This document shows, in pieces, positions 1,572 through 9,273 of a DNA stretch of 9,273 bases (position 1 is its first letter; the number at the start of each line of letters is the position of its first letter). Made by a program: the position numbers and the translations under genes. Source of the DNA: a virus (lineage: Duplodnaviria; Heunggongvirae; Uroviricota; Caudoviricetes); the IMG/VR virus record IMGVR_UViG_2531839476_000009, positions 1 to 9,273 of that record; one strand, written 5' to 3'. The notes below the pieces were generated by a model that worked only from the letters and a program-made list of their open reading frames with translations, searched no databases and was not told the origin of the DNA.

Positions 1572-2088
1572 GCGGCCCTTACAATATAATTAAAAGCGAT
1601 GTTACGAGGACGAGTTTCTGTACCTACATTTTCACTAATTTCACCATAACGTTTAACACTACGAGAGCTAATAGCTCGTAGTGAGGAAGGCACATTAAGA
1701 CCGGGTTCGTCCGTTTTAACTATTCCCCCGTCACCGTATGTAGCCAGTATTCCTGGGTTTACTCCTTCCCGTGCACTTCCTGCGGCGAGTCCGTCCCCTG
1801 TCCATAATTCCATATAGTGTGCATGGTCCAAAATTGTGTGTGGCTGCCAATTAAGCAAAGCGCGACCAGTATCAATCCCGCGACCGTCATCCCAGCCACG
1901 AATAAATTCACCGCGTAAATCAGGCAATTTATTGGTCGGGTAAGCCTTTGCCAGTTCCGGGTATTCTTCAGCAGAAAAAGCCGCACCATTGCATTTCAGC
2001 CAGCCTGTTGGCGGAGTGGCTGAAGGCCACGGAACAGGCACCCCAACCGGTAATGCAGAGCCTTCTCCCAAACCAACGTTTAAGAAAA
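1568..2088 (-). CDS. Alternative tail-fibre variable C-terminal cassette (promoterless here; would fuse to the constant fibre region after inversion)
   Basis: Reading frame runs through the right crossover site and encodes the same LGLGE junction as the expressed fibre. Contains a tail-collar-like motif (PVGVPVPWPSATPPTGWLKCNGAAFSAEEYPELAKAYP). The ATG at 2116 in the ORF track is unlikely to be a real start. Confidence 0.8.
2063..2088. repeat. Right crossover site for the serine DNA invertase (26 bp)
   Basis: ttctcccaaaccaacgtttaagaaaa, 14/14 identical to the reverse complement of the inner half plus core of the left site. Lies 55 bp upstream of the invertase ATG. Confidence 0.75.
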
Positions 2089-2143
2089 TGCAGAGATTAC
2101 GGCTAACTGGCATCATCCCCGGTTTTTATTCAGGGGATCCATC

Positions 2144-2743
2144 ATGCTTATTGGCTATGTCCGCGTATCAACAAATGACCAGAATACAGAATTGCAGCGT
2201 AACGCGCTGGAGTGCGCAGGATGTGAACTAATTTTTGAAGATAAAATCAGCGGAACGAAATCAGCCAGACCGGGATTGAAAAAACTGATCAGAACGCTAT
2301 CAGAAGGAGATACGCTGGTTGTCTGGAAGCTGGACAGACTGGGCAGAAGTATGAAACACCTGATCACGCTTATTGAGGAATTGCGGGAAAAAGGTGTTAA
2401 TTTCCGTAGTCTGACGGACAGCATTGACACATCAACACCCATGGGGCGTTTCTTTTTTCACGTCATGGGGGCTTTAGCCGAAATGGAACGTGAATTAATT
2501 GTAGAGCGTACACTGGCCGGGCTGGCAGCAGCACGCGCACAAGGACGCATTGGCGGACGTCGCCCGAAGTTGACAAAAGAACAACACGAGCAAATAGCGA
2601 GGTTGATTAAAAACGGTCATGACAGGAAACAACTGGCGATCATTTACGACATCGGCATATCGACGATTTATCGTTATCACCCTGTAGGCGATATACAGGC
2701 TGAAGAAACAACCAGGCAGACTCAGGAAAATGAAAACCGCTAA
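2144..2743 (+). CDS. Site-specific DNA invertase, serine recombinase of the Gin/Pin/Cin/Hin family
   Basis: N-terminus MLIGYVRVSTNDQN... with catalytic-serine motif, ...VVWKLDRLGRS..., ...GRFFFHVMGALAEMERELI...RIGGRRPKLT... and a C-terminal helix-turn-helix region. SD aggggat lies upstream of the ATG. Very close to Gin/Pin as I recall them. Confidence 0.95.
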   Translation: MLIGYVRVSTNDQNTELQRNALECAGCELIFEDKISGTKSARPGLKKLIRTLSEGDTLVVWKLDRLGRSMKHLITLIEELREKGVNFRSLTDSIDTSTPMGRFFFHVMGALAEMERELIVERTLAGLAAARAQGRIGGRRPKLTKEQHEQIARLIKNGHDRKQLAIIYDIGISTIYRYHPVGDIQAEETTRQTQENENR

Positions 2744-2762
2744 TCTGACCATTAGCGGTTTT
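2733..2762. terminator. Probable bidirectional rho-independent terminator between the convergent invertase and gpU genes
   Basis: Perfect 12-bp stem aaaaccgctaat / attagcggtttt with a 6-nt loop. It overlaps the invertase stop codon and has T-rich flanks on both strands. Confidence 0.6.
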
Positions 2763-2769
2763 GCGTTAA

Positions 2770-3264
2770 TCAAAACAGCCCTTTAACGGAGCTGGCCGCG
2801 CTGTTAAGGGATGATGTGACCTTATCTTTGAAGCCGGACAGCATATCACTGAACGATGAGGATTGCAGGCGCTCCCGCAAATCCTCATCACAGCGTTCAA
2901 GGGTCAGTGAAAATTCTATCTTTTTCGCCTTACCGTAGCGATCAAACTCGGAACGGGTCGTATTCGTTCCAGTCAGGACATACATGCCGTAAATCTGCCC
3001 GACGCCATCAATCAAAGGCCAGGGTCGTCCTGTATAAGCCTGCGTGGTCAGCAGCGACAGCGACACTTCGCCACCTGTAATTTCAGGATAAAGCACACCA
3101 GAAAGAACGATGCGATCATCACCTGCACCGATATACTGCCAGCTTGCTGAACGGTTAATGCGTTCATTTTTCACATGCCGCCAGCTTTTGTTTTGCTGTA
3201 ACTGCTGATGCGGCAGCGTGCGCAGCTCAAAAACAAACATGCCGTAGATCATCATCATGGCCAT
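2770..3264 (-). CDS. Tail protein gpU-like
   Basis: 164 aa. N-terminus ...MMMIYGMFVFELRTLPHQQLQ...SWRH... and ...IEFSLTLER... resemble P2 gpU. Lies immediately downstream of the tape-measure gene. Confidence 0.9.
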   Translation of the reverse strand: MAMMMIYGMFVFELRTLPHQQLQQNKSWRHVKNERINRSASWQYIGAGDDRIVLSGVLYPEITGGEVSLSLLTTQAYTGRPWPLIDGVGQIYGMYVLTGTNTTRSEFDRYGKAKKIEFSLTLERCDEDLRERLQSSSFSDMLSGFKDKVTSSLNSAASSVKGLF

Positions 3265-3270
3265 GACTCC

Positions 3271-6086
3271 TCAATCTTTATCGTAAAAACTGCCACGCCC
3301 GGCACGGGCGCGCCGTTCCATTTCTGCCCTGACCATTTCACCGACCAGTTTCGCCAGTTCGCGGGGATTCTGCGTAACAACGTTATGCAGATGAACATGA
3401 ATTTCACCACCAAATTCGGAGGCAACAGGCTCCCGGTTACGGGAAGTTACAGGAACTGATGCCACTGGAGATCGTATAGCCTCCGCCACCGGGCGGGAGC
3501 TGGCCGCAACAACAGTGACCAGCGCCGGAGGCAGCGGAGCCGGGACCACGGGTGTGATATTAATTGCGGGGGCAGGCTTACTGACCTGCGCAATCTTCCG
3601 CTCCTGCCACTCCCCACGAACAGCAAGTGCGCGGGGCAGGTTCTTAAAGACAATATCGCCGGGGCCAATGCGTTTTTTCGTCTCATCAACCAGCTTACCT
3701 GTGTTATCAGCAATTTTGCTGAGTCTGCGTAGCGTCCCGGTATTGCTGTCTGTGAGCGGTTTGTTGTCTTTGGGTTTATCACCTCCGGTGCCATTGCCAT
3801 TTTCCACAGGCTTCGGCGGATTGATTTTCGCAAGGTCCCCCTGAAGCAAGGCAACCTTGTCCTGAAGAATGGCCGCACGCTGTGCGTCTTCGATTTTCTT
3901 GCGCGCCTTTTCCGCTTCATCCGGAAGGACGCCAAGTTTTTCAAGTATCCACGCCAGCGTATCCAGTAGCATTTTTGCAGGTGTCAGAACAAGCTGTAAC
4001 GCACCGCCAAGAACGTTACCGAATATCTCGCCAGCACTGGTACATTTATCCAGCGTTTCCTTGCTGGACTCCATCGGTGACAGCAGCGATTTAAACCAGT
4101 TAAACACCTGGCTGATCCCGCTTCCGATTGCGTCAAAAACAGGACCAAACCGTTCAAAGGTTTCGCGCAACGGGGTCAGCCTTTCCATAATCCCGCTGAA
4201 CACCCCGGCAAAAATGCCCTGATGGGATCCCAGTATTTCCAGATAAGAACGGCAGCTCCGGCAAGCGCAGCCACGATAAGACCAACCGGACTGAACAGCG
4301 CCCCGATAGCGCCTCCCAGTAAAGAAACGGAACCCGTCACCATTCCCCATAGTGCTGGCAGGACCCTGACAGCATTCATTGATCCGGTCAGGAGAGAAAA
4401 ACCAAGACGCAGTTTTGCCAGCGGACCAGCAAGCACACCAATAGCCAGCGACAACGAGCCAACCGTTGCAGTCATTGCCAGCAACGCACCGCCTGCTATC
4501 AGTAGCTGGCGCGTCAGTGCCGGATGGGCCTGCGCCAGCGCCGTCACCCTTGATACCACCCGCGCGAGCCACTGCGTGACAGAACGCAGCGGACCGTCAA
4601 TCAGATCTGCAATGCGGATGCGCAACCCTTCCCATGCACTGCCGAGTGATTTCAGATCGCCGTCAAGGTTGTTGGCCATAACCTTTGCTGTGCGTTCAGC
4701 CTCACCGCGCGCGCCTTCAAGTTCTTTTCTCAGTTTGGGTAAGGAACCGTCACCCGCTGCATCAACGAGCGCCATAAACGATGTGAAAGCCTCTTCTCCG
4801 GCAATGTCCTTAAAGAACGATACCCGGTCAACTTCCCCGTATTTGCGGGTGGCTTTATAAAGGTCGGCCAGCACATCCTCCATCGGGCGCATTTTGCCCC
4901 CGGCATCCGAGACGGACACGCCCAGCTCTTTCAGAGCTTCTGCCGCCGCCTTTGGCGGTGATGCCAGACGAGCCAGGCTGGCACGCATTGCCGTCCCGGC
5001 ATCACTCCCTCTGATGCCCATATTCGCCAGCACGCCAGCCATCGCTGCGGCCTGCTCCAGCGATATTCCCAGCTTACCCGCCACCGGACCTGCATATTTC
5101 ATGGTTTCGCCCAGTGCGCGAAGGTCAGTGTTGGTACGGGTAAACGCTGCGGTGAGTGTGTCACCGACCCGGTCCATCTGGTCAGCAGAAAGGCCGAACT
5201 GCGTCAGGATATTTGAGCCAATATCCGCCGTCTCGCCGAGATCCATGCCGCCAGCCGTTGCCATGCTCAGCACGCCCGGAAGCGCAGCCTGAATGGCCTG
5301 CGGTGTGAAGCCAGCCATTGCAAGAAATGCCTGCCCACTGGCGGCATCGCCTGCGGTGAACTGCGTTTCAGAGCCAAGTTTTAACGCCTGCTCACGCAGC
5401 GCCTTAAACTGCGGGCTGTTCTGGTCGATTCGCGTCAGTGCCTGAACGCGGGACATCTCTTTCCCGAACCCGATCGCAGGCTGCAAAAAACGCCCGGCAG
5501 CATAGCCGCCAGCCGCTGCCGCACCAATTGCCAGCGCACCACCTGTTTTCAGTTTTCCCGCGGTTTCCTGCGCGCGCGAATACCGCTCACGCGCCCGCGT
5601 TACACGCGCAAGCGCCTGCCGTTCGCGTTCAAGCTGGTTGTTGTACTGTTCGGTGCGTCTGATGGCCTGCTGGATGGTGTTATCGCTGCCTGTCAGGGAA
5701 ATGCCGTGGCGTTTCAGCTCTCCGCCAAGCTCCCGCATTTTCTGAATTTCCCGTGTACGCGATTCATTCAGGCGTTCAAGCCGGGTGCTTAACTGCTGCA
5801 TCAGCTTTTGTTGTTTTTCGCTGAGCACTGTACCCGTGCGTTGTAACTGATTAAGGGCGTTAAGCTGGCGTCGTGCTTTCACGACGCCAGCATCCGCTTT
5901 ACTGACAGCGTCGCGGGCGCGCTCAAATGATCGCGCCTGACGCTCGAGATTTTTGATCGCCCCCTGCGTTCGCTGGATGGAGTCACCAAACTGCCCCATC
6001 AGGCGGCGGGCGTTTTCGGCAGGTCGGGTCAGCCTGTCAACGGCGCTGAAAGCGACCCGGATATCAAGAGTCTTCATTGTCTGCAT
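3271..6086 (-). CDS. Tail tape measure protein (gpT-like); reading frame interrupted by a 1-nt frameshift near 4210-4214
   Basis: Two overlapping ORFs (4176-6113 and 3271-4572) in different frames. Both carry tape-measure-like sequence; the upstream piece ends in a hydrophobic segment and the downstream frame only reads sensibly from about 4200. Start is probably the ATG at 6086 or 6077, overlapping the E' stop; the track start at 6113 is a GTG. Confidence 0.85.
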
Positions 6087-6593
6087 TCCCGCTGCGAAGT
6101 GCCGCCCGCTCACGCCAGCTAACCACTTCGCCGGGCGTCATCATGAAGATTTCGGCGGGCGACCAGTTAAAAATGGCGGCAATATCCGCCACAAAGTCTT
6201 CTATGTGCTCAAAGCACACAACCGTGATCAGGCTTCCGTCGCCTGTTCGTTCTTCCCGCCAGAGTCCGCACCGCTCAAAAAATTTACGGCAACCACACAT
6301 AACTGAATAAAGTCACGGGATGCCATTTTTTTGATCGTCACTTCATCCAGTCGCGGTGATGTCACGCGTGACAGCAGCGTAAACATGGATTCCGCTTTCA
6401 GATTCAGCACATCAGACAGCGACAAATCTCGCAGAGATCCAGCCTGCTCAATAGCCCCGGTGATCTCCACATACGTGATTTTTTCGCCGCCTCGCTCAAT
6501 GGGTTGGGTAAGTTTTACGCCACGCTCACTGGTTTCTTTCACAGTGTCAGTAACTACCGTGTTTTCGGTATCGATGTTTTTCGTCTCTTTCAT
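6064..6593 (-). CDS. gpE+E' tail assembly chaperone fusion produced by programmed -1 ribosomal frameshift (about 176 aa)
   Basis: E ORF (6228-6593) and E' ORF (6064-6300) overlap with E' in the -1 frame. The slippery heptamer T TTT TTG sits in the zero frame inside the overlap. Position is immediately upstream of the tape-measure gene, as for P2 E/E' and lambda G/GT. Confidence 0.7.
6228..6593 (-). CDS. gpE-like tail assembly chaperone (non-frameshifted product)
   Basis: 121-aa ORF with SD aaggag 8 nt upstream of the ATG, located between the tube and tape-measure genes. Confidence 0.85.
   Translation of the reverse strand: MKETKNIDTENTVVTDTVKETSERGVKLTQPIERGGEKITYVEITGAIEQAGSLRDLSLSDVLNLKAESMFTLLSRVTSPRLDEVTIKKMASRDFIQLCVVAVNFLSGADSGGKNEQATEA
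6276..6282 (-). promoter_or_regulatory. Slippery heptamer T TTT TTG for the E/E' -1 frameshift
   Basis: Minus-strand sequence aaT TTT TTG agc read in the E frame as N-F-L-S; after a -1 slip the E' frame reads F-F-E-R-C-G-L. Confidence 0.7.
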
Positions 6594-6614
6594 CAGGAAA
6601 CTCCTTTCAGTCAG

Positions 6615-6635
6615 AGGCGACGCACTGCGTCGCCT
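6615..6635 (-). other. Intercistronic hairpin between tube and gpE genes (possible mRNA-stability or attenuator element)
   Basis: aggcgacgc-act-gcgtcgcct, a 9-bp perfect stem with no following U-tract on the coding strand. Confidence 0.35.
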
Positions 6636-6647
6636 GCATATTACTTA

Positions 6648-7159
6648 TCAGCCAAGCCCAAGCGCGGAACGGATGCGATCGGGCACAATGTCCTTGCCGT
6701 CCTTCCGGTAGATGTGGTTCAACAGGTCGATTTCCCACAGCGGGCGATCGTTAACGCTCAGCTTGTAGTAGGTGTTTTTGACAGCGTAAGTGTGTGATGT
6801 GGCTTCGCCCTGTTTGGCTTCCCCCATATCAATTTCCGTCACACGCCCGCGCATCTCGATTTCATACAGATCGCTTTCTGCATCGGTGTAGTATTCACCC
6901 GCAAAACGCAGCAGCGTGCCGTCAATCGTGCCGCCATACTTAAGGAACAGCTCACGAACTGCGCCCCCCATGACAAAGCTCGCATCAAGCGCGGAGTCAT
7001 CCAGGCCGAGATCAATACTTACCGCTCCCATCATGCCACACCCCGGTAGCTGTCGGTTTTGCGCGTCAGCTTAGGCAAAGTGACGGACGTCACCTTACCC
7101 ACTTCGTTTTCACCATCCACAAACAGCGTAAAAAAGCGAAGATGTTTTGGCACAGCCAT
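6648..7159 (-). CDS. Tail tube protein (FII-like); reading frame interrupted by a 1-nt frameshift near 7038-7045
   Basis: The 128-aa ORF (6648-7034) contains ...DLGLDD...LRFAG...EIEMRGR..EIDMGEAKQGE..., resembling P2 FII but without its N-terminus. The missing N-terminus (MAVPKHLRFFTLFVDGENEVGKVTSVTLPKLTRKTDSYRG) is encoded in another frame, starting at an ATG at 7159-7157 that overlaps the sheath stop (TGATG). Confidence 0.85.
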
Positions 7160-8343
7160 CAGGCACCTCCCAGCACCGCAAATGCGGGGCCAAAGAATTC
7201 ATCAGTAAACGTCTGGTAAAGCTCCATGTCTTCCAGCGGGGGAACAGGCGTATATTTGTAGCGAATACGCACACGCCCCTGACGTAAATCCGTGGTGCTG
7301 TTATCCACCACGTCATACCAGCACTCCGCGCCAATCAGTTTCCCGGCAGTAACCAGTGAATCCAGTTTTGCCCTGATGGCACTGATAACATCCTTCACGT
7401 TCGCAGGCGTCAGTGGACTGTCGATGGTTTCAAACTGCGCTTCCGCAATTGAATCAGCCAGCACCTGTGCGGTTCGGGTATACACCTCAAAGATGTAGGC
7501 GTTCGTTTCCGGTGTGCGGTTGCCCCAGAAGCGGAACCCGTTGCGACGAATAATGGTCGTGATTTCTTTGTTGTTGAGGCTGTTGGCATCGCTGTCTTCG
7601 GCCTGCAACGACCAGAACACTTGCCTCGACATCCCCAGCACATTTTTAACCGGAACGTTGGACAGTGATTTGTGCCACCCCTGCTCAATGGTCAATGTAC
7701 GCACGAAGGCCGCACGCATAAGCAGGCGCGGGGAACGTTCGTTTTTGCCACTTTTCGGGTTGTAGGCGATGAAGTCCGGCCATAAGAGCATCACCTCACG
7801 TTCGTTGAATTTCTGGCGGTAGGTAATCGCCTCAGCCATCGTGTTACAGCCGTGACAGGAGGCATACACAAACGCGCGCAGTTTACCTGCAATCACGCAC
7901 ACGGATTTTGTTACCGCCTCCGTGTCCAGCTCCGGCGCGGCCAGAATACGCGGACGGTATCCGATGCTTTCATCCTGCTCTGCAACAAGCAGCGCATACA
8001 TCCCCGTATAGCTGCCGTCATCCTCAGAACCACCGATAACCAGTTGATCCTGCGTTTTTCCGTCTTCTTCTTTGTGTTCAGCCACGCGAACGACGATCAC
8101 CTTTGTGCTCACCTGGTCTGCGATGGCCTTAAGCGCACGATAAAGCGTCCCCGTTGTTCCGCATTTTCCCAGCACGTCATTGACGCGGGTCAGCAGTGTG
8201 GGCTTGTTCAGCGGGAACAGCTCCGCGTCCGCATCATCCGCCGTTGCCACGATACCGATAACACTGGAATCAACATCATTAATCGCTGTTACCAGGTCGG
8301 TACTTTCCGTAACACGGGCACCATGAAAACGAGTTTCACTCAT
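7159..8343 (-). CDS. Tail sheath protein (FI-like)
   Basis: 394 aa. Motifs ...FPLNKP..., ...RILA.P.LDT..., ...LLWPDF..., ...EQGWHK.LSN..., ...IRRNGFRFWGNRT..., ...YTRTAQV..., ...YKYTPVPPLE... resemble P2 FI. SD aagggg lies upstream of the ATG. Confidence 0.95.
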   Translation of the reverse strand: MSETRFHGARVTESTDLVTAINDVDSSVIGIVATADDADAELFPLNKPTLLTRVNDVLGKCGTTGTLYRALKAIADQVSTKVIVVRVAEHKEEDGKTQDQLVIGGSEDDGSYTGMYALLVAEQDESIGYRPRILAAPELDTEAVTKSVCVIAGKLRAFVYASCHGCNTMAEAITYRQKFNEREVMLLWPDFIAYNPKSGKNERSPRLLMRAAFVRTLTIEQGWHKSLSNVPVKNVLGMSRQVFWSLQAEDSDANSLNNKEITTIIRRNGFRFWGNRTPETNAYIFEVYTRTAQVLADSIAEAQFETIDSPLTPANVKDVISAIRAKLDSLVTAGKLIGAECWYDVVDNSTTDLRQGRVRIRYKYTPVPPLEDMELYQTFTDEFFGPAFAVLGGA

Positions 8344-8500: not shown

Positions 8501-9241
8501 ATGACCGACACCACCATGCAATTGCTCAGTCAGGGCACAGACCCCGTGAAAATGCCGGATTTTGATATTCTCGCGGAGGGTAAAACGCTGTCAGGCGTGG
8601 CAGAGCGCCTGATGAGCCTGTCACTGACCGACAACCGGGGATTTGAAGCGGACCAGCTCACCATCACGCTGGATGATGCGGATGGTCAGTTGCAGCTACC
8701 GCCACGGGGCGCGCGCCTGACGGTTCTCATTGGCTGGAAAGGAGAACCGCTGACAGAAAAAGGCACTTACATTGTTGATGAAATCGCTCACGAAGGACCG
8801 CCGGACAGGCTGACTGTTTCAGCCAGAAGCGCAGATTTTCGGGATGAATTTAACGTTAAACGTGAGGTGTCCTGGCATGATGTGACCGTTGAGCGTGTGG
8901 TATCCGCCATCGCTCATCGGTATGGTCTGAAACCGCAAATCAGCGAAATGCTGATGGATATCGAAATCGACCACGCCGACCAGACCGAAGAAAGCGACAT
9001 GTCCTTCCTTACGCGCATGGCGGAAATGCTGGGCGCAATCACCACGGTAAAAAGCGGTAATCTGTTATTCATCATGCCCGGTGGTGGCGTGAACGCACAG
9101 GGCCAGCCGTTGCCATCGTTCGCCATCACACGCAGCAGCGGCGATCGCCATCAGTTCCGCATTGCTGACCGCGAGGCGTATACGGGGGTACGCGCTTACT
9201 GGCTTGATCTTAATTACGGGAAAAAGAAAAAGTCAGCGTGA
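8501..9241 (+). CDS. gpD-like tail protein (late control gene D family), N-terminal 246 aa; possibly truncated
   Basis: ATG at 8501 preceded by SD gggaggg. Motif ...LSLTDNRGFEADQLTITLDDADGQLQLPPRGARLTVLIGWKG... is typical of gpD/VgrG-type N-terminal domains. The in-frame Met at 8369 in the ORF track lacks an RBS. Confidence 0.8.
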   Translation: MTDTTMQLLSQGTDPVKMPDFDILAEGKTLSGVAERLMSLSLTDNRGFEADQLTITLDDADGQLQLPPRGARLTVLIGWKGEPLTEKGTYIVDEIAHEGPPDRLTVSARSADFRDEFNVKREVSWHDVTVERVVSAIAHRYGLKPQISEMLMDIEIDHADQTEESDMSFLTRMAEMLGAITTVKSGNLLFIMPGGGVNAQGQPLPSFAITRSSGDRHQFRIADREAYTGVRAYWLDLNYGKKKKSA

Positions 9242-9273
9242 AACGCCGCAAACCGCCAAAACCGAAAAAGAGA

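Follow-up and report, generated by a model that had tools for sequence, protein, structure and literature searches.

A single-base frameshift in the tail tube gene of a P88-like Escherichia coli prophage, probably introduced by the draft assembly

The stretch of DNA under analysis (9,273 nt, hereafter the window) is identical in sequence to contig AKNI01000029.1 (assembly GCA_000268205.1), taken in full and reverse-complemented; the protein records EIQ70430.1 and EIQ70431.1 give the name of this assembly as Escherichia coli EPEC C342-62. A P88-like prophage (Xuanwuvirus, Peduoviridae; P2-like) is represented in the contig by its tail module, with gene D on the plus strand and the genes for the sheath, the tube, an E-type tail protein, GpE, the tape measure protein and U on the minus strand, while a Hin/Cin-type invertase and tail-fibre segments are located beyond U. 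The order sheath-tube-E-T-U is identical to that of phage P88 and of WS3294A. The sheath gene (FI type, 394 aa) occupies positions 7159-8343 on the minus strand, directly upstream of the tube. Downstream of the tube, a tail protein is encoded at the position of the E-type chaperone (6228-6593, minus strand) within the conserved sheath-tube-E-T order, and the tape measure gene, whose product has 935 aa in relatives, is found at 3271-6113 on the minus strand. At the far end of the window, a 1.87-kb tail-fibre segment (207-2076) lies in the orientation opposite to that of WS3294A; flanked by the inverted repeats TTGGTTTGGGAGAAG (approximately 210-224 and 2062-2076) and adjoining a Hin/Cin-family recombinase gene (2144-2743), it is a typical invertible host-range segment.

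Where relatives carry the tube gene, the window carries two minus-strand ORFs. The first of these (7159-7031) comprises 42 codons (MAVPKHLRFF...KTDSYRGVA) between an ATG at 7159-7157, which overlaps the stop codon of the sheath gene (ATGA), and a TGA at 7033-7031, and it was deposited as EIQ70431.1 ('major tail tube protein'). The second (7034-6648), deposited as EIQ70430.1, comprises 128 codons and a stop, and its ATG (7034-7032) overlaps the TGA of the first ORF, again as ATGA. Both products match the PF04985 (Phage_tube) profile above its curated gathering score of 22.4 bits: the 42-aa piece at profile positions 1-38 (38.4 bits, E 1.5e-9) and the 128-aa piece at positions 40-165 (100.2 bits, E 1.5e-28). 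Since these matches cover consecutive, non-overlapping parts of the profile, the two ORFs represent consecutive halves of a single-domain protein. An uninterrupted ORF of approximately 170 aa covering the whole domain is absent from the window and appears only when one G is restored, whereupon the repaired protein matches positions 1-165 of 165 (157.2 bits, E 4e-46).

In intact P2-like tails and in R-type pyocins, the tube protein polymerises around the tape measure protein on the baseplate, with the contractile sheath enclosing it, and the gene order of the window is of this P2 type, with the sheath immediately upstream of the tube and with E/GpE, tape measure and U downstream. In P88 (AIZ95156.1) and WS3294A (WP_000290446.1; Xuanwuvirus, Peduoviridae) the tube gene is situated at the same place, its start likewise overlaps the sheath stop, and it is likewise followed by the genes for the E-type tail protein, GpE, tape measure and U. 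The tube DNA of the window is 95.9% identical to that of P88 and, bar the missing G, 100% identical to that of WS3294A, the 128-aa fragment being identical to residues 43-170 of the WS3294A protein; however, the gene is unbroken in both relatives (170 aa), whereas that of the window is split into 42 and 128 aa. Similarly, while the repaired protein matches the full profile of the family of phage P2 gpFII, the window itself contains no single polypeptide that does so. The repaired protein is also homologous over residues 1-167 to the R-type pyocin tube PA0623/FIIR2 (3J9Q, 5W5E, 6PYT), with full-length homology at E 4.4e-25 to the solved structure of the R2 pyocin tube (3J9Q/5W5E), although the latter is part of a bacteriocin particle, not of a phage, and has diverged in sequence from the tube of the window. 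The conserved motif YR(A/G)GGM, which reads YRAGGM in the R2 pyocin tube, spans the exact break point. There is no doubt that the split gene of this P88-like prophage encodes the major tail tube protein (P2 FII type). An earlier note, made from the letters and ORFs of the window, had recognised a tail tube gene of FII type that a one-base frameshift divides in two, and this description is borne out by the PF04985 matches of both pieces and by the alignment; the coordinates that it gave for both ORFs and for the CCCC run at 7041-7044 are likewise correct.

Alignment located the lesion precisely. The coding strand of the window reads TAC CGG GGT GTG GCA TGA, while that of relatives reads TAC CGG GGT GGT GGC ATG ATG (YRGGGMM); the lost base is thus a G from the GG doublet that adjoins the GGGG run (coding strand GGGGT[G]GTGGC). 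On the plus strand this corresponds to a single C at 7039 between A7038 and A7040 (A-C-A at 7038-7040), where relatives have CC (A-CC-A). Across the site the deleted form is GGGGTGTGGC and the intact form GGGGTGGTGGC, and the sequence of the intact tube junction is GGTGGTGGC. The GGGG run itself (CCCC on the plus strand, 7041-7044) is as long as that of the closest relatives and is not where the mutation lies. Therefore, while the earlier note correctly sought the missing base near this run, its alternative of a change within the run does not hold, as the affected doublet adjoins the G4. Its expectation that one added base would restore a 170-aa protein is confirmed by alignment and translation, but the restored residue is Gly (...YRGGGMMGAV...) and not Cys (...YRGCGMMGAV...) as it had written. 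The repaired protein has 170 aa and is 100% identical to the WS3294A tube; because the repaired gene is identical throughout to a known 170-aa tube gene, the lesion is not a product of chance. In the tube region 1,373 E. coli records match the window, and all among the matches listed span 532 nt, against 531 nt in the window; isolated phages such as P88 also span 532 nt.

The deleted form proved to be exceedingly rare. Among 5,426 complete E. coli genomes, none matched a 33-nt probe carrying the deletion, while 764 contained the intact 34-nt control, at 820 places in all. In k-mer counts of the panel, the form of the window was present at one locus besides the window (L011, discussed below) and the repaired form at 70. 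Among the matches listed for the IMG/VR sample, 119 of 119 tube-gene matches had the intact 10-nt spacer; the 120th match to the pattern had a 7-nt spacer (CTTAAAG) unlike that of any tube allele. A separate IMG/VR scan for spacers shortened by one or two bases encountered none. Full-length IMG/VR tube genes gave a similar picture, with one of 114 among the matches listed being frameshifted anywhere (a +1 insertion at nt 44). The same search for spacers one or two bases short in the metagenome collection returned 39 matches, all of which were unrelated DNA matching by chance. The exact 128-aa product is also encoded by two metagenome contigs, which were rejected as frameshifts, as L005 is interrupted by a scaffold gap of Ns and L006 by the contig end; one of the two visibly reads GGTGGTGGC. 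The earlier note had also considered that relatives might genuinely start at the ATG at 7034 and lack the upstream segment. No such relatives were found: the gene is unbroken in 113 of the 114 IMG/VR genes and intact in the 764 complete genomes.

The tube lesion is not the only anomaly of the contig. Compared with WS3294A, positions 2062-7188 (5.1 kb) contain two single-base deletions and not a single substitution. One of the deletions is that of the tube G, while the other, a private A6 to A5 change in the tape measure gene (plus strand 4210-4214), splits this gene into ORFs of 633/645 aa and 310/433 aa. The A5 form was present at none of the panel loci, compared with 77 for the repaired form (k-mer count), and the 633-aa fragment occurs in the assembly collection only in the contig of the window. 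Additionally, the sheath gene bears a private additional A at 7687/7688 and a private T3 to T2 change at 7738-7740, 52 nt apart, which together preserve the length of 394 aa but place residues 203-219 out of frame and so scramble 17 invariant residues (RSPRLLMRAAFVRTLTI in the window versus the conserved TFPAPAYACGLRAYIDH in the protein alignment). Neither sheath indel was found at any panel locus, against 117 loci with the repaired form for the added A and 104 for the T2 change (k-mer counts), and in the assembly collection the scrambled sheath protein is again confined to the contig of the window. Close to these indels lie rare or private substitutions at 7621 and 7678, a clustering which suggests that the consensus is of low quality in this patch.

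The contig also contains four substitutions that are private with respect to approximately 120 related loci (7189, 7902, 8394 and 8434); all are transversions, three of them between G and C, a spectrum that is unusual for natural variation. In natural decay, substitutions outnumber indels and transitions predominate, and the combination seen here of short-run indels with rare transversion types looks like consensus noise. In total, three private indels are present in the contig besides the tube lesion, the tube deletion itself being common to one other, very noisy contig. Searches of the literature under the accession or the strain name yielded no account of the sequencing method. Elsewhere in the contig, both ends display further single-base indels relative to relatives (C3 to C4 at 6 and G2 to G1 at 9271).

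An exact-protein look-up identified the 42-aa product in two other assemblies, and an account of the split as purely a sequencing error was softened when the same division into 42 and 128 aa emerged there. The first of these, L011 (UGEA01000004.1, GCA_900449795.1; an NCTC contig), carries the identical deletion in a tube allele that differs at approximately 4% of positions. This contig has 16 private single-base indels in 7 kb, for which reason it constitutes weak confirmation; the clean comparators L001 and L010 have one and two apparent private indels, respectively, and one of these, which is common to L001, L010 and the list for the window and lies in the divergent N-terminus of the E gene, is taken as an alignment artefact. 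If the indels of L011 were evenly spread, the chance of an identical hit would be approximately 1%, and coincidence could reach a few percent on the assumption that G/C runs are favoured. The second assembly, L010 (a Logan assembly, SRR30896068), is otherwise clean and has lost a different single base at the same G-rich site (CGGGGGGTGGC) in a different allele, which nonetheless gives the same 42-aa product; this lesion is possibly a G7 to G6 change from a CGG GGG GGT GGC allele that is seen in IMG/VR.

Further breaks of the tube gene were found in protein fragments and in other lineages. The fragments P0017, P0018 and P0020 also end at codons 40-42, and N-terminal fragments breaking at these codons are recorded on 38 and 110 contigs, the cluster having been selected for fragment length and being biased accordingly. 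Within this length-selected cluster at least five distinct lesions fall within 12 nt (the deletion common to the window and L011, that of L010, and those of P0017, P0018 and P0020). A probe for the P0020 allele (YRGAA*), constructed with guessed flanks, found no match in complete genomes. In another lineage, alignment identified a G6 to G5 change at nt 192 of the tube gene in both L134 (Logan) and L138 (a chromosome-scale NCBI contig), while L139 (a chromosome-scale contig) displays the same gene-call split into 68 and 106 aa and L136 (Logan) the matching 106-aa fragment; the 68-aa C-terminal fragment is present on 218 contigs. The lineage of L134, L138 and L139 is a genuinely decayed prophage. 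Its tape measure gene is also split, and tube positions nt 25 and nt 336 are listed for it too. The L010 lesion, the breaks of P0017, P0018 and P0020 and the lesion of L134/L138 thus establish that genuine frameshifts of the tube gene exist, and the G-rich stretch may be somewhat mutable. The same pattern, in which an indel in a short run yields two adjacent ORFs of one family, is seen in other prophage tail genes with frameshifts, be they pseudogenes or the result of indel errors in draft or long-read assemblies; examples in the same gene are L134/L138 (G6 to G5, nt 192), L042 (an added G at nt 44) and L011, and the case of the window is no different in kind. Whichever cause applies, the identity of the gene and the nature of its lesion are of an ordinary, already understood kind.

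A second split gene in the window has a different standing. Gene D (PF05954) is represented by its N-terminal 246 codons at 8501-9241 on the plus strand, which end at the A5 allele of a AAAAAGAAAAA(A)G tract; the end of this ORF (9221-9241) reads GGG AAA AAG AAA AAG TCA GCG TGA, as opposed to the usual ...AAA AAA GTC AGC GTG, and the remainder restarts at an overlapping GTG, giving products of 246 and 123 aa. The A5 allele is also present in L133-L140 and in L010. It is considered real and widespread because 186 blocks of the collection contain the exact 246-aa product, among them Illumina-based Logan contigs and two chromosome contigs of more than 5 Mb. As a -1 slip on AAA AAG would recreate wild-type D exactly, the allele may be leaky; given the split allele, the prophage may have lost its function already and be under no constraint against decay. 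The PGAP annotation of many complete genomes presents gene D as an 801-nt 'VgrG/Pvc8 family' CDS with a small pseudo-CDS on the opposite strand (L001 6561-7361, L008 3151-3951). The full 369-codon D ORF starting with MTDTTMQ is open in both WS3294A and KSC9, and the 801-nt call is an annotation quirk and not a lesion.

In assessing the cause of the tube split, the gene identity, the exact lesion, the absence of the deleted form from finished genomes and the indel noise are observations, while the origin of the lesion in sequencing or assembly is inferred from them. The split is probably a single-base indel error of the draft assembly: one G of GGT GGT GGC is missing from the record, the frame then meets a TGA after 42 codons with the remaining 128 codons in the -1 frame, and the tube lesion would count as one of four private single-base indels, all in short runs of essential tail genes. 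This reading is favoured over a true mutation because the contig contains three further private indels and four private transversions and because the deletion is absent from finished genomes. Evidence to the contrary is formed by the identical deletion in a second assembly with a tube allele approximately 4% different (L011), by the existence of real tube frameshifts (L010; L134/L138), and by the already split allele of gene D. These same observations are what a real deletion in the strain would draw upon; under such a scenario the P88-like prophage would be a decaying, defective element with a tube pseudogene, producing the 42-aa peptide alone or perhaps also a 128-aa piece reinitiated at the ATGA, and accordingly neither a functional tube nor a tail. 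It would gain from the presence of the same deletion in an independently assembled, different allele, from the different deletion at the same G-rich spot of an otherwise clean Logan contig, from frameshifts of the tube gene common to independent assemblies of other E. coli lineages, from the recorded fragments broken at codons 40-42, and from the widespread split allele of gene D, which is compatible with relaxed selection. However, the deletion is absent from the finished genomes with their 820 intact copies, from IMG/VR and from the metagenome contigs, and is seen only in two indel-noisy contigs; two indels without any substitution over 5.1 kb, together with substitutions that are all transversions, are unlike natural decay, and the paired sheath indels 52 nt apart are hard to account for as neutral mutations. 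On balance a real deletion is the less likely explanation, though a serious rival. The earlier note had stated that tail assembly would be blocked, which presumes that the lesion is present in the organism; the private indels, the transversions and the absence from finished genomes make an error likelier, and an assembly error, which it had itself raised as a possibility, is the likelier cause here.

It could also be proposed that the split gene is functional, either through a -1 shift in CGG GGT that yields a full-length tube or through association of two fragments, the second being made by termination-reinitiation at the ATGA. The overlap of stop and start codons, together with an SD-like GGGGUG (-6.3 kcal/mol against the anti-SD) that precedes the ATG at 7034 by 8-13 nt, makes reinitiation at 7034 plausible as a prediction, and tRNA-Gly could formally slip by -1 from GGU to GGG. 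Nevertheless, the product of reinitiation would be a tube protein without profile positions 1-38, and the break separates these positions from the rest of a single-domain protein. Furthermore, no X XXY YYZ heptamer is present in approximately 7066-7031 (zero frame ...CGC AAA ACC GAC AGC TAC CGG GGT GTG GCA TGA), and the downstream RNA has a minimum free energy of -32.6 kcal/mol against a mean of -39.3 for shuffled sequences (z = +2.32), all 200 shuffles being at least as stable. The split is not conserved either, as the gene is unbroken in relatives, including the isolated phage P88, and neither finished genomes nor IMG/VR contain the deleted form. With no slippery site, no stimulatory structure and no conservation, programmed -1 frameshifting was rejected, and a working split protein of either kind is scarcely credible. 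A broader proposal, that the G-rich CGGGGTGGTGGC at codons 39-42 is a recurrent hotspot which silences P88-like tails, or that the split allele yields a working tube by reinitiation and association or by low-level -1 slippage, is also very improbable. The notion of a frameshift hotspot had been hinted at by the fragment cluster, and it was set aside in view of the unbiased scans, in which 119 of 119 among the matches listed were intact, no -1 or -2 form occurred in IMG/VR, and the metagenome matches were all due to chance.

If the tube split is an artefact, as appears probable, it is a matter of annotation only, and EIQ70430.1 and EIQ70431.1 together make up one tube protein; the split tape measure gene of this record and its scrambled sheath residues 203-219 warrant equal distrust. 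AKNI01000029.1 should therefore be regarded as unfit for inferring that the prophage is defective unless the reads confirm the lesions. Defective prophage remnants are common in E. coli, and, should the deletion be real, this prophage would be unable to build tails and would be such a defective remnant.
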